Assembly (NCBI GenBank): GCA_963764345.1
Contig: CAVXSF010000009.1
Location: 131,116 to 195,115, forward strand
DNA: 64,000 bases
Direction of reading: 5' to 3'
Source: an uncultured Bacteroidales bacterium
Lineage (GTDB): Bacteria; Bacteroidota; Bacteroidia; Bacteroidales; GCA-2748055
Shown: positions 9,249 through 62,720 of the stretch, one piece after another
Layout of the letters: each line of letters begins with the position of its first letter
Position numbering within the stretch: the stretch's first letter is position 1
Made by a program: the position numbers and the translations under genes
The notes under the pieces: generated by a model
What the model was told of the DNA's origin: nothing
What the model saw: only the letters and a program-made list of their open reading frames with translations
Databases searched by the model: none

Positions 9249-9307
9249 GATGCCTTGTTTTCTTGATGAACAATCTTCGGGCGATAATGATCGGAGAAGA
9301 AGAGGTT

Positions 9308-9551
9308 GGGGAGTTAGGGATTGAGGGATTGAGGGATTGAGGGATTGAGGGATTGAGGGAAAGAGGAAAGGAGGAATGATGGTGTTTGTAGAGGCGCAAT
9401 TAGGAGATCTGGAGGAATCGAGATTAATTTCGCAAAAACGAATTGAGGGATTGAGGGATTCAGGGAATAGGGATTAATCGATTGACGTGCAAAACTGAAA
9501 TCTGTGCCTAATCTGTTCGTAATTGTCCTAATCTGTGAAATCTGTGGTGAA
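9308..9551 (+). repeat. G-rich mosaic repeat array R1, the shortest member of the five-array family
   Basis: The left end is GGGGAGTTAGGGA, followed by 5x GGGATTGA (9317-9356). A degenerate middle follows. The right end is TTCGTAATTGTCCTAATCTGTGAAATCTGTGGTGAA. Confidence 0.85.
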
Positions 9552-18178: not shown

Positions 18179-19063
18179 ATGGCAACCGGAGAACCACCTG
18201 CCGCACAGGCATCAGAGGAGAACGATACAACCGGCACCGCCACCCTTGACCTTCTGCCCCTGGCCATCTTCGAGCCTTCGGTGAGAGAGGGTTGTGCCCC
18301 GCTGACCGTAACCTTTGCCAACCTCTCCCAAAACAGCCATGCCTGGCAGTGGAGTTTTGGCGACGGGCAGGAGGCGGATCAGAAAGAACCCGTCCATCGT
18401 TTTGAAAATCCAGGCGAATACTTCGTGATCCTGACGGCTGAAGGCGACAATCACACCGTCTCCACCCTCACCCTCACCATCGTGGTGCATCCGCGGCCCG
18501 AAGCCAGCTTCAACATAGAGGCAGCAGGCATGCCCGGCAACGGGAAGCCGGTGTACTTTTATAACCTCAGCACCGGCGCTGAAAGTTACGAGTGGCATTT
18601 CGGCGACGGCGGTGTCTCACACGACCGGGAGCCGGTATGGAACTACGACAAGGCCGGCAGGTATACCATCACCCTGATCGCCCGCAGCGCCTCCGGCTGC
18701 ACCGATACCATGGTGATGGAGAACGCCTTTGACCAGGGCGGGCCGGAGATCCGGTTCCCCAATGCCTTCAGCCCCGACATGAACGGGCCAACAGGTGGAT
18801 ATTACCATGCCGGCGACAGTAACCATGACGTCTTTCATCCGTATACAGGCGAAGTCCCGGAAACGTACGAATTAAAGATCTACAACCGCACCGGGAACCT
18901 GGTCTTTGAAAGTCATGATTTCCACCTTGGATGGGACGGCTATTACCAGGGCAGGCTTCAGCCACGCGGTGTGTATATATGGAAGGCCAGGGGACGTTTT
19001 GCCGGCGGAAAAACCTTTGAAGAAATGGGCGACGTAACGATGATATATAATGGAGGGAGTTAG
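18179..19063 (+). CDS. 2x PKD domain protein with a T9SS type-B (gliding-motility-associated) C-terminal domain; the real N-terminus is probably upstream
   Basis: PKD motifs are FANLSQNSHAWQWSFGDG and YNLSTGAESYEWHFGDGG. The CTD reads FPNAFSPDMNG...LKIYNRTGNLVFES...GWDGYYQG...GVYIWKARG. There is no signal peptide after M18179, and the same frame is open back to 18020. Confidence 0.8.
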   Translation: MATGEPPAAQASEENDTTGTATLDLLPLAIFEPSVREGCAPLTVTFANLSQNSHAWQWSFGDGQEADQKEPVHRFENPGEYFVILTAEGDNHTVSTLTLTIVVHPRPEASFNIEAAGMPGNGKPVYFYNLSTGAESYEWHFGDGGVSHDREPVWNYDKAGRYTITLIARSASGCTDTMVMENAFDQGGPEIRFPNAFSPDMNGPTGGYYHAGDSNHDVFHPYTGEVPETYELKIYNRTGNLVFESHDFHLGWDGYYQGRLQPRGVYIWKARGRFAGGKTFEEMGDVTMIYNGGS

Positions 19064-19797
19064 AGATTAGAGATTGGGGATTAGAGATTGGGGATTGGGG
19101 AGTTAGAGATTAGAGATTGGGGATTAGAGATTGGGGATTGGGGAGTTAGAGATTAGAGATTGGGGATTAGAGATTGGGGATTGGGGAGTTAGAGATTAGA
19201 GATTGGGGATTAGAGATTGGGGATTGGGGAGTTAGAGATTAGAGATTGGGGATTAGAGATTGGGGATTGGGGAGTTAGAGATTAGAGAGTTAGAGATTAG
19301 AGATTGGGGAGTTAGGAGGAGTACTGAATTAACATCTTCATAACTTCATAACCTCATAACCTCATAACTTCATAACCTCATAACCTCATAACTCTTTAGA
19401 AAAGTTAGGGAGTTAGGGATTGAGGGAGTTAGGGATTGAGTGGGAAGAAAGGTGTGAAAGGTGAAAGGAGGCGGATAAATGATGGTTTTTATTTCGTAGA
19501 GACGAGCAATTATGCACGTCTCCTGGAAAATACGGAATTAATCATTCGTGCGAAAAACAAAAGGTGAAAAGTGAAAGGTGAAAGTGAAGGAAAGAGAATA
19601 TTGAATATCGAATATTGAATATCGAATATCGAATAATGAATTCGGAGACGGGAGAAGGACTTAGTAAATACTGCGGCGGACTGGGTTTCCCCTTTAGGGG
19701 ACTAAGGGGTGAGCGTAGGGAGGAAGGGGAGACGGTCGTAGAGACGCCATGTATGGCGTCTCTACTACAAAACAACCCCGAATTTCCTAATATCATC
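19054..19797 (+). repeat. G-rich mosaic repeat array R3
   Basis: A 43-bp higher-order unit (AGAGATT AGAGATT GGGGATT AGAGATT GGGGATT GGGGAGTT) occurs about 5.5 times, with anchors at 19059, 19101, 19144, 19187, 19230 and 19273. It is followed by 7x TCATAACY, GGGAGTTA/GGGATTGA tracts, GAAAGGT and GAATATC tracts, and GGAGACGGG. Next come the GGGTTTCCCCTTTAGGGG module, a perfect palindrome at 19738-19765, and a CGAATTTCCTAATATC right end. Confidence 0.9.
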
Positions 19798-22700
19798 AAC
19801 CGCCAACCGGCATCATAAATAATTACGGGCAGGTTTTAATCCCGTCACGTAAAAGGAGAACGAACACAAGAGATATCGAATTATATCGAAGAAGACAAGG
19901 CCAGCCTTGTCCCAACGAAAAACAAAATATCCCCGCCCCAAAGGGGAAACCAAACCTGAGATAATGATACGGACGAACCTTATAAAAAGACGATTCCTCC
20001 CGGGACTGCTCCTGCTGCTCCTGGGAAGCTTCAATCTCTTTTCCCAGACACAGATCGACAGTGCGAAATATATCACCGTAAACCAGGATGTGATAACTGT
20101 ATACCTGAACGAGCCGGTGACCCTGACCACTGCTGCGGGCTGGTCTGTCAATGTGGGAGGTACCGTACATACCTATAATTCAAATACCCTCATACGTCCG
20201 AATATCCAGTACCTCTCGGGTAGTGGGACCAATACCATTAATTTCAGACTCTTATTCGTTTTTCCTAAAACAAATATTGAACCGCCCGATGTGGCTGCCG
20301 GAGTTACTGTTTCATATAACGGTAGTGGAAATACAAAAAATTTATTGAGTGTTTCAATGGGTGCAGACGGGCCTGTTACCGCAGTGAACGACCGGATTAT
20401 TACCTGTGATATGCTGACTTCAGTACAGTCAATTGGTGTGGAAAATAGTACAGGACCATGTCAACCAGTTTCTGTACAAATGAAAATTTCATGGAATTGG
20501 TCAATGGTCGCTAGAAATAGTACTCATTTTAATACAAATGGAATACAAGCAAGAACATCATGGAATGATCTGGCAAATACAAAAAATAACTACAATATGA
20601 CTGAAGATCCAATAAATTCAGGCAAATATGTAGTTGTAACTCCACTTTTCTCCTATTCTATTGAAAATACTTGTACCTTTAATTTAGCCGTATATCCAAT
20701 ACATCTTCATAAACCATCAGATCTACAACAAGCAAATCTATATGTGTTATGGGGAACTACTCAAGCAAGATTATATCTTCCAGCATATCGCTTAGATAAC
20801 CAACAACTAGGCGGTAACTTCCAAATCACACCAGCTACTGGCTCTAACCCAACACTTATTTGTCGTGGCAGTGATATTGACGGTTTCATTTTTCACGATG
20901 CCACCGAATTCAACTGTAACTCTGGCGTAGAACCCGACCGTCCCAACGAAGGCACCCGTTGGACGCAGTTCGTATATGGTACCCACTCAGGTGCCGGTAT
21001 CCCCAATGTATATATCGACGTTCACGGCACCATGGTCCAGATCACCGACAATGACGGTAATTTTATCCCCGGGCCCTTTACCGTCGATCCCAATACCGGG
21101 GCTACCGTGGCACCCTATGACACCGCCAGCGGCTTCTACGAAGGGCCGGTGGAAGAGATCCCGGAACCGGCCACAGGTCCTACCGCCCAGACTTTCCCCA
21201 TATACCACACCGGCAACTATTACAACGACCAGGTGAATGACGTGTTCGAGGTGACCCTCCGAAACTGGGGGCCGTGTAACAAATACATCGATTTTGAAGC
21301 CCCTATTGAAACCACTTCGGAATTGAGACTTATCGAAGCACCTCCCCCGCCCAACCCCGGAACGCACGATCATTGTTTCGGCTCTGTGCCGGGAACGATT
21401 TCGGTCACCGGTACCGGCGGGGATATCGACTGGTATTCCGACTCAACGCTTATCACCCTTATCAAAAACAACAGCAGCAGTTATACCCACGGTGAAACAG
21501 CGGTGGGCTCATATTATTACTGGGTAAACGAGACCGGCGGCAACGGCTGCGTCGGCCCCGACACCATGGTCACCCTCACCATCAACCCCCTCCCCCTGAA
21601 CAACCAGCCCGTCTCCGACCCGGTGATCTGTGCCGGCGAAACGGCTACCATCACCATCGGAACTCGGAGCCGGGCGTATCCTACCAGCTGCGTAACGACG
21701 CCAACGATAATCCCGTGGGCGCAGCACAGACGGGCACCGGCGGGACACTGAACTTCAGTGTCAGCCCCGGCTCCACCATTACCTATAATATCCTGGCTAC
21801 CAATATACCACAGGCTGCGACAATGAGCTCACAGACAAGGCCGTGGTTACCGTTCATCCCCTGGCCAACATCAGCAGCCAGCCGCCGAACCGGACCAGGT
21901 GCGAAGGCAACCAGCACTACCTTCTCCGTTACCGCCTCCGGTCCTATCGTCAGCTACAGGTGGTACGTAGACCCGAACACCGGCACCTTCTCGGCCATTA
22001 GCAACGGCGGCGTTTATACCGGCGCCACCACGGCCACCCTGCATGTCAACAACATCCCGGCGTCCATGAACAACTACAAGTACCGCGTGGAGATCATCAC
22101 CACCGGACCGTGCTCCAAAATCTCGAACGCCGGCACCCTGCGTGTCAACCCCGCTGCCACTCGACAAGAACGTGATCGCCGACGATTATTACCTCTGCTA
22201 CGGCACCTCCACCAGCATCGTGGTGCAGTCGTCGGAAAACGGCATCGCATACGATTTCCGCATCGGCAGCGACGTGAAGAACACCCAGACCGGCAACAAC
22301 GCCAACCTCGACTACCCCACCGGCAACCTCATGGCCGACACCACCTATAACGTCAATGCCCGTAATACCGTCACCGGCTGTTCACGCGTTCTCACCGACA
22401 AGCCCAGGGTAAATGTCAATCCCGATCTCACAGCCAATTTGTCCGTGGCACTCCCCGACATCTGCAGGACACGCCCATCGACCTGCCTTCAGTAACCGTC
22501 ACCGGCGGCTCCGGTCAATATTCCTACCTCTGGACCGGCACCGACGTCTATACAGCAGCAACAGCCAGAACCCGGCATCTTTCATGCCCTCTTCCGCCGG
22601 CGGACACAGCTATACCGTCACCGTCACCGACGAGGGCTTCCTCACCGAATCGGCCGGCACACGCACCTGTACGGCATCCGACAACACCAGCTTCACGGTC

Positions 22701-24053
22701 AACCCCATGCCCCTCGACCGGACCGTCCAGGTCACCCAGTCGAAGATCTGTTACAACACAACCACGGGCATACGCATCGTCAATTCCGAGAATAACGTTG
22801 AATACCAGGTGAAAAATGCCGCCACCGACGCCAACATTGGCGGTCCTGTCGCCGGTACGGGCGCTAACATCACCATTCCCACCGGCAACCTCACCGCCAC
22901 CACACAATATAAGGTTGTGGCCACACGGACCGACGTCACCCCCAATTGTGAGATCGTGCTGACCGACAAGCCTACCGTCACCGTCGACAATGACATTTCC
23001 ATCGTCGCTTCCGTCGATGATAATGCCATCTGTCTGGGCGAAACCATCAGCCTCAGCTCGACACCCTGCCGGCGGCACCACCAACTACAGCTTCACCTGG
23101 AGCGGTCCCGACGGTTTCAGCAGCGGCGCCGAAGATCCCGGTGTCCTACACACCGGTATCATCAGGCACTCCCCATACCTTCTCGCGTCACCGTGGCCGA
23201 CGATTTCAACCCGTCTGGCGGCGGCACCTGCCGGCCACCGATAATGTCACAGTGGATGTCTTTACACCCGCCTTCCAATGGCATCACACCTGTCGATCCA
23301 CCATCTGCGTGAACATCAACCAGGTGCTGAGCGGTAATCCTGTCGCAGGCAGCGGAGCTATCACCTCCCACTTATGGACCGGCGATACCGGTCCACTGTC
23401 GGCCGTTAGATATAGCGTCCCCGACCTTTAACACTGCCACACCCGGCGTATACAACCTTACTTATACCACTACCGACACACATGGCTGCCAGGCTGTCGA
23501 TAATGTGGCCGTTACTGCTTCAGGTCCACAGGTATCCCCGCTTCCGGGTGCCACTGCCGGCGTCTGTGCCGGGAAAGACCTGGCTATAGACGGAAATCCA
23601 TCCGGCGGACAGGCACCCCTGTCCCATCTATGGTCGGGAGATATCGGTCCCCTGAATAACGCCAACCTGCAGGCTCCTACATTTAACTCGCCTTCCACCG
23701 GTGTATTCAACCTTGTCTATACCGTTACGGATAATATCGGATGTAAAGCCTCGGGCCCGGTAGTTGTCACCGTCAGTGAAGTCAGCGCCAGTCCTCTTCC
23801 GGCATCACCCGCAAAGATTTGCACCGGCGAGGACCTGGCTCTCAACGGTAACCCCAGCGGCGGTACGGGCACCTACCCGATCCATCTCTGGTCACCCGGC
23901 GCCAACCCGCAGGCAGGAGTGCTGAGCGCCACCAACCAGCAGAATGTGACCTTCAACGCAGCCACTCCGGGTACCTATACCTTCGACTATTTTGTGCAGG
24001 ACCAGGCCGGTTGTAACTATACCGAAAGCGGCTACCAGGTAGTAGCCTACCTC

Positions 24054-26563
24054 AGCCCTGTTGCCGATGCCGGCAGCGGCGGCGATATTTGCGGACTTAC
24101 CTTCGGGCTGGCCGCAGCACCCAGCGTACCTGCCGGAAACCGTGTGAACTACACCGGCCAGTGGACAGTGACAAGCGGACCCGGAACAGCCTCCTATGCT
24201 TCCGGACAGAGCAGCGCGGTCACCGATGTTACCGTCACAGTCTATGGTACCTATGAATTCACCTGGACGGAGACCAACGGTAACGGACAGTGTTCCGACA
24301 GTAAGACCATCACGGTCAATTTCTACCAGCAGCCCACAGCCAATGCAGGAATCGACAAGGAGATCTGCGGCAGCAAATCGACAGCTCTCGCCGCCACAGC
24401 ATTCAACTATGCTGCTGCTCCCAACGTTAACTCTGGCAGTCGTACCTGGGCATACATCAGCGGCCCGGATGCCACACCCACATTTGCCAATGTCTCTGCA
24501 CCCAACAGCAATGTTTCGGTGGACTATTACGGTACTTACCAGTTCAGTTATACGGAAGATAACGGTGGTGTATGCACCGATGCCGATACCGTAACAATGA
24601 CCTTCTACGAAAGTCCTGTAACTTCTGCCGGCAACGACATTGAGGAATGCAATGCACTCACGACCAACCTCGCCGGCACCGCCTTCACATACGCCGGAGG
24701 TCTGAACCAGAATTCGGGCAGCCGCGGATGGGAATATATCAGCGGTCCCGACAACACGCCCACCTTCGGCAATACCACCAGCCCCACATCGGCTGTCACG
24801 GTGAACCGGTTTGGGCGTTACATGTTCCGTTTCGCCGAGACCAACGGCACATGCAATGATGCCGACACGGTGCAGGTATCTTTCTACGAGCAACCCACGG
24901 CCAATGCCGGTGCCGACTCATCGGTCTGCGGCAGTAAAACCATCACCCTCTATGCCAGCCCCTACGGATACCTTGGCGGAGGGAATATCAATTTCGGTGC
25001 AGGACTGTGGACCTATGTCAGCGGTCCCGATGCCACGCCCACCTTCTCCAACCCTGCCAGCCCGTTCAGCAGCGTAACGGTGGACTATTACGGCGTGTAC
25101 CGGTTCAGGTACACCGAGACCAACGGCACCTGCAGTTCATCCGATATCGTTCAGATCACCTTCTTCCAGGATCCTACGGCCAACGCAGGAATTGACAAGA
25201 ACGTTTGCGGCAGTCTGAGCACACCCCTGGCAGCTACGGCTTTCACTTACGCCGCAGCGCCGAATGTCAATTCAGGCAGCAGAACCTGGTCGTACGTTTC
25301 CGGCCCCGATGCCACACCCACCTTCAGCAGCCTTTCGAGTCCGACAGCCACCGTTACGGTAAACAACTACGGAACCTACCAATTCAGGTATACCGAGACC
25401 AACGGCACCTGCAGTGATGACGATATTGTACAGGTAAACTTTTACCAGCAACCCACAGCCAATGCCGGCATCGACCAGAAGATCTGCGATGCTCTGAACA
25501 CCAGCCTCACGGCCACAGCTTTCACCTACCGCCCGGCACCCGATGTGAATGCCGGCGTACGCCAGTGGAGTTATGTCAGTGGTCCCGACAACGCCCCGTC
25601 TTTCAGCGACCCGGCCGACCCGCATTCCTCCGTCACCGTCCTCTTCTATGGCATCTACCAGTTCAGATATACCGAGTCCAACGGCACCTGCAGCGATGAT
25701 GATGTTGTTCAGGTAACCTTCTCCCAGCAGCCCGTCGCCGATGCCGGCACCGATGTCCAGGTCTGTGCGGGGAAGACCGCCAACCTCACCGGTTCAGCCT
25801 TCCTGTATGCCGCCGGGCTGAATGAGAATTCGGGCACCCGCCAGTGGCAGTATGTCGACGGTCCCGATGCCACCCCTACCTTTGCCGCCCCGTCCAGCGC
25901 CACCTCCAGCGTCTCTGTGGACAATTACGGTACGTATCATTTCCGGTTCGTGGAAACCAACGGCACCTGCAATGATGCCGACACGGTGAAGGTCACCTAT
26001 AATGAAGAACCGTCAACTGATGCCGGCCCCAACCAGCAGGTGTGTGATGCCCTCACCACGGACCTGGCAGCCACATCCTATACTTACCTTCCGGCACCCG
26101 ACCAGAATGCCGGGACAATGACATGGTCGTATGTCAGCGGACCCGATGCCTCGCCGGTCTTCAGTGATGACGGCAGCCCTACTTCAGCTGTAACAGTGAA
26201 CGACTACGGCACTTACCGGTTTATGTTCACCGAGACCAACGGCAACTGTAGTGATGCCGACGTGGTAGATGTGACGTTCTATGAACAGCCCACTGCCAAT
26301 GCCGGCACCGACATCGACGAATGTGGTGTCCTGAGCACCAGTCTTGGCGCCACGCCATACAGTTACCTGGGAGCGCCAAACCTCAACTACGGCACCAGGC
26401 AATGGAGCTATGTGAGCGGTCCCGATGCGACACCGGTATTCACCAACCCGGCCAGCCCCACCAGCGGCGTGACTGTCGACACTTATGGCTCATACCAGTT
26501 CAGATATACCGAGACCAACGGCTCATGTCATGACGATGACATCGTCGTGGTTACCTTCCACCA
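24054..26563 (+). repeat. Intragenic tandem repeat: 9 copies of a 93-aa (279-nt) domain inside the giant gene
   Basis: The copies follow the consensus QQPTANAGxDxxxCGxxxxxLAATAFTYAAAPNVNSGSRTWSYVSGPDATPTFSxxxSPTSxVTVxxYGTYQFRYTETNGTCSDxDxVQVTFY. I counted them in the translation of 23505-30941. Confidence 0.85.
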
Positions 26564-28740
26564 GCTGCCAACCGTAACGCCTATGGCCGGCTTTACCGTC
26601 TGCCGCGACAGTGCGCTCAACGTCATTCCTGTAACCGGTACCTTCGGCGGCGGAGCTACCACCGCGTCGTGGTCTGTCCTTGCCCCGGCAACAGGAAGCA
26701 TTATTAATGAAAGCCAGACGGGGAATACCGTCACGGCCGAATACGTACCCGACTACGGTGACCTGGGCGGATCGGCAGTCTTGCGTCTCACCAGTGACGA
26801 TCCCGCAGGCCCCTGTGTGGCTGCATCGAATGATGTGGTGATCACCATCAATGAAGCTGCCTGGGTCGATGCAGGCCCCGACACCATCCAGATCGCTGCC
26901 GGTGCTACGGCTGCCCTTAACGGCATCGTTGCCGGTGGCACCAGCAACGGAACATGGACAGTCGTCTCCGCACCTGCGGGAGGCACCTTCACCCCCGGTC
27001 CCACTACCCTCAACGCAACCTTCGATCCGACAGCCACACAGGACGCCGTAGGATATGTCACCCTCCGGCTCACCTCCGACGATCCCGACGGTATACAACC
27101 CTGTGTGCCCGTATATGACGATATCGTCATCCATATCGGAGAGAACCCCGTTGCCGACGCACTTGCAGATACCACGATCTGTGCCAACGACACGATCTTC
27201 CTCAACGGCCGCATCAGAGGTTCTGCCACCAACGGCACATGGTCTGATCTCGATGGTGCCGGCTCGGTAGTATACAATACCCTTGTTGATGACAGCATCG
27301 TCATCGGCTATTACGTCACAAACGCCGCACAGATGGCTTCCGATGTGGCTCAGGGTTATGTCACCTTCAGGCTTACCACCGACGATCCCGACGGTGCCGG
27401 TCCGGTCATCGCCGACCACGATGATAAAACCGTAAGTATCAACCCGCTGCCAAACACCTCACCCATCAGCGGTCCGCCAGAAGCCTGTATCGGAACCAAC
27501 AACCTGTTCTACAACGTCACCCTTACACCGGGCTCCTACTACGACTGGACCTGGGCCGCTTCCCTCGGCACGAAAACCTTCGGCGGCGACGGCCTTAACA
27601 GCAATGCACTGGTAATCAACGCCTCACCCCTGCCCGCCAGCGACACGATCCGCCTCGTGGAAACAAACCAGTACGGCTGCGTCGGACAGGAGATCAAAAA
27701 GGCAGTACTAATCAAAGACAAAACACCGGTAACCACCGTTTCCGGACCTGCGGAAGTTTGCGACCGGCAGGAAAATATCGAATTCAGCATCCCGCAGATT
27801 GCCGGATCGACCTACCAATGGTTTGTACCCACAGGCTCCGGCATCATCTCCACTCCGAATATCGACTCCGTCTTTGTCAATTTCGGATCGATCAGCGGTA
27901 ATGTGAGTGTTACCGAAACCAATTCAGCCGGATGCGTCACCAACCACGACCCTCTGTTTGTGACTGTCAACCCGTTACCGCCGTCAAACCTCTCAGTGAA
28001 CAAAACCAATATCTGCCTCGGCGAGGCCGTCACCTTTACTGCCGGTCCTGCAGGAGCAGCCAATTATGAATTTTTCGTTGACAGCGTCAGCGCCCAGACC
28101 GGACCCGGGAACACTTACGTCACCGACAGCCTGACCGACGGGCAGCAGGTATTCGTGAATGTCACTACTATCAAGGGCTGCGAGAAAGCGAGCGCCGCTA
28201 TCACGATGAACGTCTACGCCAACCCGGTGGTAACCCTTACCAGCTCCGACATCGACAACACCATCTGCTTTGGCACAAATGTGCTCTTCACTGCCTCAGC
28301 TGCCGGAACAGTCGGTTACCAGTTCTTCCTCAATCATGCCAGCGTCCAGAACAGCGCCCTGAGTACCTACAACACCAGCGCGCTGAATGACGGCGATTCG
28401 ATCTACGTGATCGGAACCACCGCCCTCGGCTGTACCGGGGAGAGCAATGGCATCGAGACTTTGGTCAACCCGCTGCCCGTTGCGGTACTGAGCGGTGACA
28501 ATACAATATGTCCGGGCGATTCAACAGCCCTCACCGTCACCGTCACCACCGGCACAGGGCCTTACGACGTGACCATCAGCAATGGCGTGGGCACAATCTC
28601 AAATTACAACAGCGCCGATCCCATTTATATACATCCGCCTGCCAACAATGTTTACAGCCTCAGCCAGGTGACAGATGCCAACAGCTGTTCGGTGAGCATG
28701 CCGACGCCCAACCTTACGGGAACGGCCGTCATCAGCCTGA

Positions 28741-31700
28741 ACACCAATACCACCATCCTCATGCAGCCGCATGACGGTCTGACCTGCGAAGGCACCGACA
28801 CCAGTTTCTCGGTTGTCGTGACCGGCACTGCAGCCACGGTACAGTGGCAGTCCGACGACGGATCCGGCTTCACCGACCTGGCCAATATCGCCGGTGTATA
28901 CAGCGGCACAGCCTCTTCAACCCTCCGCATCCTCAACCCGGCCACAACACTCGACGGTTATACCTACAGGGCCGTGGCTACAGGCACCTGCGGACCCGCC
29001 GTAATCAGCGATACCGCTATGCTTACCGTCCTTGAAAAACCCGAAGTGACGAGTCAGCCTGCTGACGTGACCGAATGTGAAGACGGTGATGTATTCTTTG
29101 CCGTCTCGGCTGGTGTCACCACCGCCCCGGCATATCAGTGGCAGATCTTCAACGGATCGTCGTGGATCAGCCTGAACAACGGAATGACCTATTCGGGAGT
29201 AAATACCGATACATTGAGACTCACCGGCATCGCTTCAGGCTTGAACAACAGCCGTTACCGGGTTATGATATCCGGAAGCTGTGCGCCGGCCGTACCTTCA
29301 AACCAGGCCATACTAACCGTTCTTCAGAAGCCCGAAATCACCCTGCAGCCTTTTGATGCAGAAGAATGTGAAGGACAAGCCGTAACGTTTACCATCAATA
29401 CCGGTGTTACCACAATGCCGTCCATTACCTGGCAGGTATACGACGGCTCGTCGTGGGCCAATGCAAGCGGTGCAGCCTACAACGGGGAGACCACCCCAAC
29501 GCTGACCGTCAATCCTGTCATTTCAGCCATGGACGGATACCGTTTCAGGGCTGTGGTGAGCGGCACCTGTGCCCCGGAAGACACATCCTCGACAGCGGAA
29601 CTCACCGTTAAGGAGCTGCCCGAAGTGACGCTCCAACCCATTGATATGACTGCTTGTGAGGATGATACTGTGCATTTCGCGATTGATCCGGGCGTAACCA
29701 CCAACCCGTCGATCCAGTGGCAGGTCTCCACCGACAACGGCGTTAACTGGGCTGCTGTCTCCGGCATCCGATACAGTGGCGCCAACACGACCACACTCTA
29801 TATTAACGGCATCATTTCCACTATGCATAACTACCGTTTCAGGGCTGTGGTCAGCGGCGACTGCGGACCCGCAGCCACATCGAATGACGCTCTGCTGCAG
29901 GTGAACGAAAAACCGGAGATCACCCTTCAGCCTTTAAGCCAGGCTGTCTGTGAAGGTGATAATGCCATATACACCATAAATACCGGCGTGACCACCAGTC
30001 CGGTCATCCAGTGGGAGGAATGGAACGGCAGCGCATGGTCGGGTATTTCAGGCCCACCGTACTCCGGTGAGACCACTCCGACACTGACTGTCAATGCTGT
30101 GATTTCCACGATGAACCATTACAAATACAGGGCTTATCTCGAAGGCACCTGTGCCCCGCCGGTATATAGTGATCCGGCCGAGCTGATCGTACAGGAACAG
30201 CCGGAGATCATTGTCAACCCGAACGATACCGCCGTATGCGAAGGCCTTTCCGCCACCTTCAGTGTGGATGCCGGAGTGACGACAGCACCGGCCTTCCAGT
30301 GGTATGTCTCCACGAATGGCGGCAGCACATGGAATGCTGTTTCAGGAGTGGGTTACACCGGTATTAATACCGCCACCCTAAAGATCACCACTACCAACAC
30401 AGGTATGGACGGCTGGCTCTTCAGGGCCGAAGTAAGCGGCACCTGCCCCAACCCTGTGACCTCCACGCAGGCCGAACTCACCATTTACGAAATACCTGAG
30501 ATCACCACCCAGCCCGTCAGCGATACGGTATGCGAGGACGGTACGGCACATTTCAGCGTGGATGCCACGCCCACAACTGCACCAGCCTATTACTGGGAAG
30601 TGAACCAGGGCAGCACCTGGAATGCCGTTGCAGGACCCGATTATTCAGGCCAGGGGACGACAGACCTCACCATCACCAACGTCGTTTCCTCCATGTCGGG
30701 TTACCAGTACAGGGTCACCATCGCCGGGACCTGTAATCCGCAGGTCATCTCCAATGTAGCTAACCTCATCGTCAGGGAAAAACCGGAAGTCACCCTTCAG
30801 CCTTCTGATGCTGAGATATGCGAGAATGCACAATGCATCGTTCACCGTCAGCGCCGGTGTTACCACCAGCCCGCAGTATACCTGGGAAGTCTTCGACGGC
30901 AGCTCCTGGAGTACCGCCACCGGAGGTGTTTACAGCAATGAAACCACACAGGTTCTCAACCTGACCAACGTACCGGCGACAATGGACGGCTATATGTTCA
31001 GGGCCGTTATCTCCGGGATCTGTGCCCCTGAAGACACGTCTGATGCTGCAACACTCACCGTCAATGAACGGCCTGAGATCACTTCACAGCCGGTAAGCGT
31101 CACCGAATGCGAAGACGGCGATGTCTACTTTGCCGTTTCGGCAGGGGTCACCACCGTTCCTGCATACCAGTGGCAGATCTTCAACGGCGCGTCATGGATA
31201 AGCCTGAACAACGGACTGACCTATTCAGGGGTCAACACAGATACCTTAAGACTTACAGGCATCGTCTCATCGATGAACGGCAACCGTTACCGGGTAACGG
31301 TATCGGGCACCTGCTCACCGGCCGTTCCCTCGGACGAGGCCGTACTGACCGTTCTTGAAAAACCCGAAATAACACTTCAGCCTCTCGATGTTGTTCAGTG
31401 CGAAGGTCAGCCGGTGACCTTTACCATAAGTACAGGTATCACCACTGCACCGGCCATACAGTGGCAGGTCTACAACGGTTCAACATGGGCTGATGTAAGC
31501 GGCGCTTCCTACAGCGGGGAGACCACCACCACCCTCACCGTCGATCCAATCGTTATCAGCGATGAACGGCTACCTGTTCAGGGCTGTGGTGGGTGGCACC
31601 TGTGCACCGGAAGATACCTCGGCAACTGCTGAACTCACTGTGAAGGAACTGCCGGAAGTTACCCTCCAGCCTGGCGGTGTGACCAGCTTGCGAAGGCGAC

Positions 31701-44767: not shown

Positions 44768-44877
44768 GCTATATGTTCCACTTCTTTCATAACCCTCAGG
44801 GGGAGTAAGCGATCTGTTGTTGTCAAAACTGCATGAAGCCAGCAAGGCAAGACCCGCCGATAAATAAAATATAGCTT

Positions 44878-62224: not shown

Positions 62225-62720
62225 GTGGTGGCGTGGTAAAGACTTATGTTTACAGGCAACTGTGGGGTCGATTGACGGTATGTACATGTTTCACTAAGAT
62301 TTTCATTCCAGGCATGGATCTGAACAGTCATCAGATCTGTCCCTGGAGGAAAAATCCAGGTAGCAATAATATTAATGTATAAGGTCATGAAGGAGGAATA
62401 GGCTTCAGTATTCTCAGTGTGCCCAAAAACATATTGTGTCTTCACCCTGCAACGATCACTTATTCAGCTATCCGGCCGGGGAGAGAAGATGACCGGAGGG
62501 TTGCTGTCACTATCCCTGACAGCCGAATCAGAAAGAGAGCTGTTTAGTTATGAAGTTAGACAGCTTTAATGAAAACAGTTAAACCGACTTTTTATATAAA
62601 AGCATAAAATTTTTCATCTTGCATTACCGGAGAAGGGGAGCTGCAAAAACGAGGACTTTGCCATGAAGGCCGGAAAAACCAAAACGGTCGTTTTTCATGC
62701 ATAGTTCTCCCTGTAACCAT

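Follow-up and report, generated by a model that had tools for sequence, protein, structure and literature searches.

A higher-order repeat array between two genes of an uncultured Bacteroidales bacterium is one locus of a genome-wide, REP-associated repeat family and probably neutral or selfish DNA

We analysed the repeat array R3, which separates a PKD/CTD gene from a giant gene in an uncultured Bacteroidales bacterium (genome G000), within a window comprising the whole analysed stretch of 64,000 nucleotides (contig CAVXSF010000009.1, positions 131,116 to 195,115). R3 is probably neutral or selfish REP-associated mosaic repeat DNA, one locus of a lineage-specific non-coding family. As one fast-changing copy of a genome-wide family it is therefore ordinary selfish or neutral repeat DNA, if exceptionally tidy, rather than a device serving its two neighbour genes, and it belongs with known repeat classes, namely the REP/RAYT subclass 2.4 hairpins and the G-rich heptamer repeats. 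The locus is laid out below; C1, C2, C4 and C8 are contig labels of G000 in locus coordinates, and G004 is the sister species.

18179-19063, + strand: upstream gene with PKD domains and a CHU_C (type-B T9SS) C-terminal domain (ORF list; Pfam PKD_4 4.7e-26, CHU_C 5.3e-9)
19055-19313, + strand: R3 higher-order array of the 7/8-mers AGAGATT, GGGGATT and GGGGAGTT (TRF, autocorrelation, unit parsing)
19314-19337, + strand: left flank (...GAATTAACATCT) of a dispersed TCATAACY module, shared with C2:13139, C2:167987 and C8:283743-284160
19338-19393, + strand: seven TCATAACY 8-mers (TRF period 8, 6.9 copies; period 24, 2.3 copies, 100%)
19394-19440, + strand: right flank of the TCATAACY module (CTTTAGAAAAG), followed by AGTTAGGG/ATTGAGGG 8-mers (TRF period 8/16)
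19441-19470, + strand: purine tract (GGGAAGAAAGGTG, GAAAGGTG), start of the family super-unit (aligned to the super-units at C4:119146-119664)
19471-19558, + strand: REP module with an imperfect single-foot hairpin at 19497-19524 (GTAGAGACG...CGTCTCC) (DNA fold; module copies elsewhere)
19559-19595, + strand: AAAGGTG/AAAGTG purine microsatellite (TRF period 7/13)
19596-19641, + strand: GAATATY heptamer tract of about six units (TRF period 7, 5.7 copies)
19641-19733, + strand: conserved G-rich family core of about 85-93 nt (113 copies at 33 loci)
19738-19765, no strand assigned: perfect palindrome with GTAG and CTAC feet, 13-bp arms and a 2-nt loop, a putative double-foot REP (sequence, fold, hairpin family)
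19766-19963, + strand: unique spacer before the giant gene (no second match in the genome; 89% identity to G004)
19964-21751, + strand: start of the giant adhesin-like gene, with ATG at 19964 and a signal-peptide-like N-terminus (translation; Pfam Ig_7, an Ig-like CHU_C-associated domain)

The array begins at the end of the upstream gene, whose final three codons and TAG stop (19061-19063) fall inside the first repeat unit of R3, and whose C-terminus we compared with those of G004 and of a further genome, G002. A six-element unit repeated with an exact 43-bp period had been predicted from this tract. Unit parsing found five such copies, 100% identical to each other, at 19062-19276, with the six units in the order predicted, followed by a diverged five-unit tail to about 19313. 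The periodicity was equally evident in the formal analyses proposed for it: TRF returned 19055-19310 with a period of 43, 5.9 copies, 98% matches and zero indels, and autocorrelation peaked at lag 43 (0.93) and lag 86 (0.91) versus 0.71 at lag 7. Read with a period of 7, the same tract gives 34 copies with 78% matches only (TRF). The period-6 agreement of the unit order was reached by none of 100,000 order shuffles, and the exact 43-mer occurs at a single locus in the genome, R3 itself. Duplication of whole units on the 43-bp register, as originally proposed, would thus appear to be the only reasonable source of five identical copies with the six-unit order exactly kept, and the array seems to have arisen locally and recently, because it is absent at the orthologous site of the sister species. 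In its process the array resembles the higher-order repeats of eukaryotic satellites such as alpha satellite, where diverged monomers are amplified as a block (here 100% block versus 78% monomer identity); the analogy is one of process only, since R3 spans 256 bp rather than megabases and is bacterial and intergenic, with no centromere function. The array was also considered as a CRISPR array and rejected as such: its units are contiguous, with no unique spacers and no Rfam match.

Downstream of it, the seven TCATAACY 8-mers whose last base follows T,C,C,T,C,C,T were found as predicted, one base off the noted span of 19337-19394. TRF gave the 24-nt superperiod as 2.3 copies at 100%, a pattern that is weak taken alone: by our own reckoning, any period-3 pattern in seven binary letters has a chance of about 1 in 16. 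At other loci the TCATAACY module ends CC-CC-CT, and the R3 tract therefore looks like a duplication of this three-unit 24-nt block. The right flank and 8-mer region (19394-19440) has about 110 matches at 35 loci genome-wide.

To place R3 in its genomic context, we turned to the whole genome, where TRF yielded 1546 rows, 310 of them with period 7 and 211 with period 8. The merged arrays form 354 loci, covering 122 kb or 2.4% of the genome. Every segment of 19055-19735 was found again at 5-40 other loci, the GAATATY tract for instance with about 120 matches at 36-38 loci. The family is built of a super-unit of 270-350 bp that comprises a purine microsatellite, a REP hairpin module, a GAATATY microsatellite, an 85-nt G-rich core and a purine tail, and that is accompanied by tracts of G-rich 7/8-mers. 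R3 contains one such super-unit (19438-19733), of which 19438-19726 aligns to the super-units at C4:119146-119664. The core, present in 113 copies at 33 loci and 85-96% conserved, is restricted to G000 and its sister among 41 genomes. It has no significant secondary structure on either strand (z = -0.2 and +0.2), and a structured RNA was rejected, the consensus fold of 103 distinct copies yielding a 4-bp hairpin only and single sequences no significant fold. Nor did Rfam searches, at gathering thresholds over the whole window and at E <= 1 over 19000-20000, return more than chance-level matches to known RNA genes; no tRNA or tmRNA gene was found in the search.

The arrays show no tie to particular neighbours. 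Their orientation relative to flanking genes is distributed 30/29/22/21 over the four configurations, that is, without bias, and a link to T9SS cargo genes was likewise discarded, as a downstream array follows 3 of 108 CTD genes versus 3.1% of all genes. An array lies no more than 10 nt away from 32 of 137 gene 3' ends, but from only 3 of 179 gene 5' ends. A target-site reading of the excess of TAG at array edges (17/32 vs 14%) was abandoned, being inseparable from the TTAG inside the units themselves. As a separate observation, in 68 of 103 arrays the G-rich strand runs counter to the GC skew of the surrounding DNA.

Comparison with orthologous loci, as suggested in the original prediction, revealed synteny between the window and G004 at 95-96% identity. 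Each of the five arrays in the window occupies the same site there, but with a very different length (G000 versus G004: R2 1345 vs 72 bp; R3 547 vs 118 bp; R4 1123 vs approximately 0-100 bp). The R3 site of G004 retains the core, in a copy 96% identical, and the 199-bp unique region before the giant gene. Missing from it are the 43-bp array, both hairpins and the TCATAACY tract; it carries other units instead and is not a clean empty site. Judged from these alignments, the site is ancestral, but its content has been replaced since the two sister species diverged. Flank-pattern scans of metagenomes for an independent copy of the locus gave no match, and neither did a search for independent assemblies by exact match to the ECF sigma protein.

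The array had been thought to fill nearly the whole intergenic space. This did not hold: because 19766-19963 is unique sequence, repeat-family DNA stops at 19765 and takes up about 78% of the 900-bp gap. With the last 199 bp before the giant gene unique, a promoter, if there is one, is most likely to be located downstream of the array, and the spacer 19766-19963 is the likely site of the promoter or 5' leader of this gene. The Bacteroidota -7 box (TAnnTTTG) was not found in 19000-20000, and no sigma-70-type site was found on the + strand of the array or of the spacer. A promoter or terminator within the array was rejected as a candidate, there being neither such a box nor such a site in it and no terminator call at the palindrome.

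The predicted perfect palindrome at 19738-19765 was borne out as 13+2+13 nucleotides. Folded as single-stranded DNA, its 28 nt reach -13.8 kcal/mol (z = -6.7), with none of 200 shuffles as stable; it is a stable hairpin within the roughly 21-65 nt of single-stranded REPs. Its feet, GTAG (19738-19741) and CTAC (19762-19765), match the double-foot pattern GT[AG]G/C[TC]AC. The kinship proposed with weaker GTAGAGACG hairpins also proved right. The foot is conserved, and the hairpin at 19497-19524, although imperfect, is a genuine relative (DNA fold -9.7 kcal/mol, z = -4.9); the REP module of 19471-19558 that contains it recurs at C4:119481, C2:78012 and C8:345383. In the genome, GTAGAGACG occurs 39+33 times on the two strands, versus about 20 expected per strand. 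Hairpins with perfect feet number 31 at 23 loci and carry at least six different self-complementary apical stems genome-wide. The family thus consists of many, mostly extragenic copies with a conserved foot and apical stems that vary through compensatory changes, as REPs do. No identical donor copy of the R3 palindrome is present in the assembly; its apical stem is unique in the genome and differs by one swapped base pair from the copy at C1:84666.

Using NF047646 together with a protein search, we identified RAYT-like genes that score at most 59 bits against this model (curated cut-off 80), and PF01797, the Pfam RAYT detector, gave no match in the genome at E <= 0.001. That such genes escape the standard Pfam model matters for annotation. 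One of them (C8:306896-307510), encoding 204 aa with the motifs NHVH, WQ and YIRNNP, has two hairpins inside and two just downstream, all of the same type as in R3, and a second, a 300-aa ORF on C2, has one hairpin inside together with tandem repeats. The RAYT-like (tnpA_REP) genes are accordingly flanked by or contain the same REP. Among 40 relatives, GTAGAGACG...CGTCTC hairpins with compensatory apical stems were found in 23, the reversed control pattern giving almost none, and RAYT-like genes in 21; both occur in 20, the hairpin only in 3, the gene only in 1 and neither in 16. In double-foot REPs of TnpA_REP subclass 2.4, a 5' GT[AG]G foot is complemented by C[TC]AC at the 3' end, and the RAYT genes carry the hairpin in or beside them (Quentin, Siguier, Chandler and Fichant 2018, PMC6006769). 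The likeness extends from the GTAG/CTAC feet, the long stem and the many copies to the RAYT-like genes with NH[IFV]H, WQ and YIxNNP, the in-frame hairpin that separates their HuH and Tyr motifs and the short repeats adjoining the hairpins of these genes. By these sequence features, the R3 palindrome can be assigned to the double-foot REPs of this subclass. The GTAG-tagged REP superfamily (Di Nocera et al. 2013, PMC3733652) is likewise among the closest known systems. Unlike the REPs of subclass 2.4, many hairpins of G000 form one module of a head-to-tail super-unit with microsatellites and the 85-nt core.

Two further systems bear comparison. In the BIMEs (bacterial interspersed mosaic elements) of Enterobacteria, REPs alternate in orientation with fixed short linkers between them. 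Our family shares with BIMEs the intergenic mosaics of REP hairpins and other conserved short motifs, the tandem repetition and a copy number that differs between strains, but its units are direct repeats of 270-350 bp with length-variable 7/8-mer tracts; its super-units run head-to-tail in one orientation per locus, at spacings of 160-350 bp. The GGGGATT unit of R3 recalls the G-rich heptamer repeats GGGGA(C/T)T of Nostoc PCC 7120 and GGGAATC of Xanthomonas (Rehm et al. 2015, PMC4692102), which we group with the long simple sequence repeats and STRR of cyanobacteria as nearest systems. R3 also shares their placement, as it begins at a stop codon, lies in a genome where nearly a quarter of the gene 3' ends counted above adjoin an array, and differs in length between the sister species. 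In contrast to those repeats, R3 combines GGGGATT, AGAGATT and GGGGAGTT in a fixed order of six units, which leaves it without four G-tracts in close succession: a run of at least four G-tracts separated by short loops does not occur in 19055-19313, and neither does a canonical G4 motif, the loops there being 3, 10 and 18 nt. Furthermore, the arrays described here are tied to REP modules and a core, a linkage absent from the report on those repeats (PMC4692102).

Punctuation roles have been proposed for the REP/BIME elements of E. coli and for GGGGA(C/T)T repeats. Correspondingly, R3 could be a host-level structural element in which G-rich tracts (as G-quadruplex or i-motif) and REP hairpins punctuate the nucleoid or transcription, an explanation we consider unlikely, as we do its variants, with the array acting as an insulator between the ECF-sigma/PKD operon and the giant gene, as a stabiliser of the 3' end of the upstream mRNA or as a binding site for a host protein. 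The arrays, 2.4% of the genome, hold 219 of its 302 canonical G4 motifs (73%), and R3 has one by G4 pattern scan (19408-19434, in the 8-mer tract), but the 43-bp array has none. Array sites are conserved between the sister species and adjoin stop codons as published for analogous repeats (PMC4692102), whereas array content and length differ at 95% identity and orientation relative to neighbours is random. REPs are reported to influence mRNA stability, termination and translation (PMC6006769), but the R3 palindrome has no T-run and no terminator call, and the published study of analogous GGGGA(C/T)T-type repeats found no function for them (PMC4692102).

It is very improbable that R3 is a contingency locus, in which the copy number of the 43-bp unit or of the 7-mers would switch or tune the giant adhesin gene by phase variation. 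Slippage-prone units in perfect copies do lie upstream of a large surface-adhesin-like gene, and the array differs in length between the sister species. Against this, the array is not in a promoter spacer or 5' coding region, since it ends 199 bp before ATG 19964 with unique sequence in between; it has no Bacteroidota -7 box and no + strand sigma-70-type site, its 7-, 8- and 43-bp units lie outside any coding frame, and arrays occur in all gene contexts with no enrichment at T9SS cargo genes. An assembly artefact, that is, mis-assembly or a consensus artefact of a long-read MAG, is hardly credible even though the genome has many frame breaks typical of long-read consensus errors, as the 256-bp array is far below long-read length, its copies are free of homopolymer-type errors, and the same family, with higher-order arrays of its own, is seen at hundreds of loci as well as at the corresponding sites of G004, an independent genome.

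Neutral or selfish repeat DNA would accommodate the whole locus. Two locally amplified heads precede the super-unit, one formed by a 43-bp block of six 7/8-mers repeated five times unchanged and the other by a three-unit 24-nt TCATAACY block repeated twice, and a perfect double-foot REP hairpin caps the single super-unit. The expansions probably took place very recently, through slippage during replication or through unequal exchange, with registers of 43 bp and 24 nt, and the hairpins may have been spread by a RAYT-type single-strand DNA transposase. The array would have no function specific to its two neighbours. It would run from a stop codon to 199 bp before the next start because selection guards the coding sequence and the promoter or leader, not the space after a gene; since the G-rich units contain stop codons, they could adjoin a gene end harmlessly.

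A more speculative proposal, which we regard as doubtful, is that REP hairpins of RAYT subclass 2.4 and microsatellites of 7-9-mers are mechanistically coupled. Hairpin-stalled replication, or nicking and rejoining by RAYT at [G/T]TAG, might seed tandem units; alternatively, TTAG-bearing arrays might be preferred targets of REPs. Hairpins with perfect feet lie within 150 bp of a 6-9-mer tract in 16 of 31 cases versus 11% of random intergenic sites, and in arrays of contig C1 the foot GTAGAGA closes a run of TTAGRGR heptamers as its final, in-phase unit. In five other species, 11 of 20 sampled hairpin loci have adjoining tandem repeats with species-specific units, some of which contain half of the hairpin.

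These results remove the tempting reading of R3 as a dedicated regulatory device placed between the secretion-cargo gene and the giant adhesin gene. R3 provides a clean bacterial case of how higher-order repeats form, in which diverged 7-mers make up five identical 43-bp blocks, and the sister comparison shows that, over a divergence of only about 5%, array sites stay in place as their content is exchanged. It also matters for annotation that 2.4% of the genome is such repeat DNA, which supplies stop codons and C-terminal residues to genes. Moreover, REP hairpins are repeatedly paired with 7-9-mer tracts in several genera, which offers a testable lead on the origin of long bacterial microsatellites; if the coupling were true, REP/RAYT activity would generate, as a by-product, the heptamer-rich intergenic DNA known for a long time from Cyanobacteria and Bacteroidota.

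Array R3, which occupies positions 19055-19765 between a PKD/CHU_C gene and a giant adhesin-like gene, appears from its sequence to be a recently expanded member of a mosaic repeat family associated with REPs, the hairpin repeats tied to TnpA_REP (RAYT) transposases. Using short-word BLAST with 19001-20000 as query against the whole genome (G000), we found relatives of each part of 19055-19735 at 5 to ~40 other loci, and 19766-20000 was unique, with no relatives elsewhere in the genome. Alignment of one R3 segment, at 74%, to two consecutive units of a tandem array on another contig (C4:119146-119664) revealed the super-unit of the family, which runs in the order purine tract (GAAAGGYG), GTAGAGACG...CGTCTCC hairpin module, GAATATY tract, G-rich core and purine tail. 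On these module alignments R3 consists of one super-unit, two heads that were amplified locally, and a palindrome at the end, and its parts are as follows.

19055-19310, 43-bp higher-order array
19338-19393, seven TCATAACY units
19408-19434, sole canonical G-quadruplex (G4) motif of R3, none lying in the 43-bp array
19438-19726, segment aligned to the C4 array
19497-19524, imperfect hairpin
19641-19733, core
19738-19765, perfect palindrome (13+2+13)

The original prediction of an exact 43-bp period in a six-element unit was confirmed by Tandem Repeats Finder (TRF), which described the array as period 43 with 5.9 copies, 98% matches and zero indels vs just 78% matches when treated as period 7, and by autocorrelation (0.93 at lag 43, 0.91 at lag 86 and 0.71 at lag 7). 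Unit parsing resolved 19062-19276 into five 43-bp copies without any difference, ordered AGAGATT, AGAGATT, GGGGATT, AGAGATT, GGGGATT, GGGGAGTT and followed on the 3' side by a five-unit diverged tail; the observed agreement was matched by none of 100,000 unit-order shuffles. The five identical copies, with the six-unit order kept, support the proposed unit-wise duplication. Within the genome the exact 43-mer was found in R3 alone, and higher-order periods at other loci measured 28, 35, 36, 42 or 44 bp. The predicted 24-nt superperiod of the 8-mers was also recovered, with the final bases T,C,C,T,C,C,T (TRF period 24, 100%, 2.3 copies), a pattern that is weak alone (chance ~1 in 16 by our reckoning). 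The tract recurs as a dispersed module, between conserved flanks (GAATTAACATCT left, CTTTRGAAAAGTTAKGG right), at C2:13139, at C2:167987 and three times within C8:283743-284160, and because the final bases read CC-CC-CT at these loci, the R3 pattern points to duplication of a 24-nt TCATAACY block. As single-stranded DNA the palindrome, predicted with its 13-bp arms, had a stability well beyond that of shuffled sequence (z = -6.7), and its expected kinship to a weaker hairpin at 19497-19530 was borne out by the imperfect relative at 19497-19524 (z = -4.9). A copy at C1:84666 differs from the palindrome by one swapped base pair.

In the 5.15-Mb genome (35 contigs, 45% G+C), of which the window is C9:131116-195115, TRF yielded 1546 rows, 310 of period 7 and 211 of period 8, with AGGGATTG, GAAAGGC, GAATATC, GGGAGTTA, AGGGATT and AGAGATT as the commonest units. 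After merging, these rows gave 354 array loci that together take up 122 kb, or 2.4% of the DNA; 181 of the loci were at least 100 bp long and just 9 lay inside ORFs. The core was present in 113 copies, ~90% alike, at 33 loci, mainly in tandem super-arrays with a spacing of 160-350 bp, and no significant fold of it was found on either strand. Large regular arrays without R3 units were also seen at C15:21973-23293 (29 bp x 45), C4:175785-176270 (51 bp x 9.5, 99% identity), C2:291486-292028 (42 bp x 13) and C11:12007-12585 (42 bp x 13.6).

The R3 palindrome is probably a REP, judging from the hairpins and RAYT-like genes of this genome. The GTAGAGACG motif was counted 39 times on one strand and 33 times on the other, vs ~20 expected per strand. 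At 13 of these sites it forms TAGAGACG...CGTCTCTA hairpins, the apical stems of which vary while self-complementarity is kept, and the hairpins stand both within arrays and alone. The pattern GTAGAGACG-N6-16-CGTCTC recurs, its apical stems specific to each species, in 23 of 40 relatives that span many genera and families; the reversed control gave nearly zero matches. A search for a Y1 transposase by PF01797 (E of at most 0.001) found none in the genome, and NF047646 (REP-associated tyrosine transposase) matched in five places, all under its cut-off. Two RAYT-like ORFs, missed by PF01797 and below the NF047646 cut-off, carry a GTAGAGACG hairpin in frame in the HuH-Tyr linker: C8:306896-307510 (204 aa; NHVH, WQ and YIRNNP motifs), with two in-frame copies inside and two more directly downstream (region C8:306777-307510), and C2:182045-182947 (300 aa), with one copy in that linker, which also has a long tandem repeat. 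The C8 protein has relatives in 21 of the 40 genomes; hairpin and gene occurred together in 20, the hairpin only in 3, the gene only in 1 and neither in 16, kin not being independent, and the hairpin lies inside the RAYT-like gene in the sister species (G004) and in G013, G016 and G037. These hairpins and genes fit the published features of TnpA_REP subclass 2.4, namely NH[IFV]H / WQ / YIxNNP motifs, double-foot REPs of the form GT[AG]G...C[TC]AC, REPs placed in frame between HuH and Y, and a variable insertion with short repeats, in a subclass abundant in Cyanobacteria and Bacteroidetes (PMC6006769); the in-gene hairpin is thus an already published oddity of that subclass and not new. The hairpins also fit the GTAG-tagged REP superfamily (PMC3733652). 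A third RAYT-like gene (C13:75042-75539, 165 aa; DHVH / WQ / YISNNP), followed by an ~18-bp tandem repeat, is flanked on both sides by a hairpin of a different, GC-rich type (GCGCGCC-WW-GGCGCGC with GTGG/CCAC feet). A second family of REPs is thereby implied for this genome.

Orthologs of the R3 locus are present in four congeners. The sister species is 95-96% identical throughout the window with full synteny, and all five window arrays lie at the same sites in both species, their lengths differing.

Lengths of the five window arrays in the genome under study and in the sister species
R1: 202 bp; sister species 363 bp
R2: 1345 bp; sister species 72 bp
R3: 547 bp; sister species 118 bp
R4: 1123 bp; sister species about 0-100 bp
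R5: 646 bp; sister species 375 bp

At the R3 site the sister species shares the core at 96% identity and the unique spacer upstream of the giant gene at 89%, with AGGGATTK, GTGATTGA and AATCTGTGT units ahead of the core, and has no 43-bp array, TCATAACY tract or GTAGAGACG hairpin. In the place of the palindrome stands the usual purine tail of the family and then a short remnant like a REP 3' arm, so that the palindrome may be either a gain in the genome under study or a loss in the sister species, where a clean empty insertion site was not seen. In the sister species, the ortholog of R1 (window 9294-9496) carries twelve GGAGTTAT units as well as a 44-bp block of its own in four copies; expansions of higher order are thus common in the family. 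The R3 core is nearer to its sister-species ortholog than to its paralogs, which argues that the core was dispersed before the two species parted and that inter-locus homogenisation has been weak since. In G002, which is ~80% identical, another purine-rich spacer stands at the site and the core is missing. Elsewhere in the window, ~1.1 kb is inserted in the sister species at the site of 44801 (44800-44802), and 277 bp at 62234-62511 is absent from it.

With genes taken as simple ORF calls in a genome that has frame breaks, 32 of 137 gene 3' ends lay within 10 nt of an array vs 3 of 179 gene 5' ends, which we read as selection protecting promoters and leaders. Stop codons were TAG in 17 of the 32 abutting genes vs 14% of all ORF-genes, and since the G-rich units hold TAG or TGA in all frames, they can touch gene ends harmlessly. 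In several abutting genes the last protein residues are repeat-encoded; in the PKD/CHU_C gene at R3 this applies to the final three codons and the stop, which differ from the sister species and G002. The giant gene was called as consecutive ORFs (19907-21751, 21715-22350, 22413-23312 and 23505-30941, spanning 19907-30941), whose frame breaks may come from errors in the long-read consensus or from genuine decay. No link to T9SS cargo genes was seen, arrays following T9SS C-terminal-domain genes in 3 of 108 cases (two being R3 and R4) vs 3.1% of all ORF-genes, nor was an orientation tied to neighbours (relative to the G-rich strand, co-directional sense 30, antisense 29, divergent 22 and convergent 21). 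No Bacteroidota -7 box, + strand sigma-70-type site or terminator was found in the R3 array, and no Rfam family or tRNA. Of 302 canonical G4 motifs genome-wide, 219 lie in arrays. Among 103 strongly skewed arrays, the loci not being independent, the G-rich strand of 68 runs against the local GC skew, and all five window arrays have G on the + strand and negative local skew. This opposition may represent a replication-strand bias, which is known for IS200/IS605-type elements.

Of 31 perfect-foot hairpins, 16 have a 6-9-mer tract no more than 150 bp away, vs 11% of random intergenic positions. In five further species 20 hairpin loci were sampled, and 11 of them adjoin tandem repeats whose units are species-specific and in some cases include half of the hairpin. 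In arrays on C1, the foot GTAGAGA closes a TTAGRGR run as its final, in-phase unit. This proximity, the half-hairpin units and the in-phase foot suggest, as a lead rather than a finding, that REPs and microsatellites might be mechanistically coupled; our literature search found no paper tying heptamer repeats to REP/RAYT. The GGGGATT unit of R3 is shared with the G4-forming heptamer repeat of Nostoc PCC 7120, to which the GGGAATC unit of Xanthomonas is related. Such repeats lie between genes, close to stop codons and on the sense strand, and vary among close relatives, and no function was found for them (PMC4692102). Heptamer repeats are also reported in Beggiatoaceae, Cyanobacteria and some Bacteroidetes (PMC4679880), as are prokaryotic satellites that derive from 6-8-mers (PMC6749651). 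The parts of R3 fall into known classes, the double-foot REP and the G-rich heptamer repeats. Among 41 genomes the core was matched only in the genome under study (35 matches) and its sister species (31 matches), and the family with its 85-nt core and super-unit order is confined to these two species.
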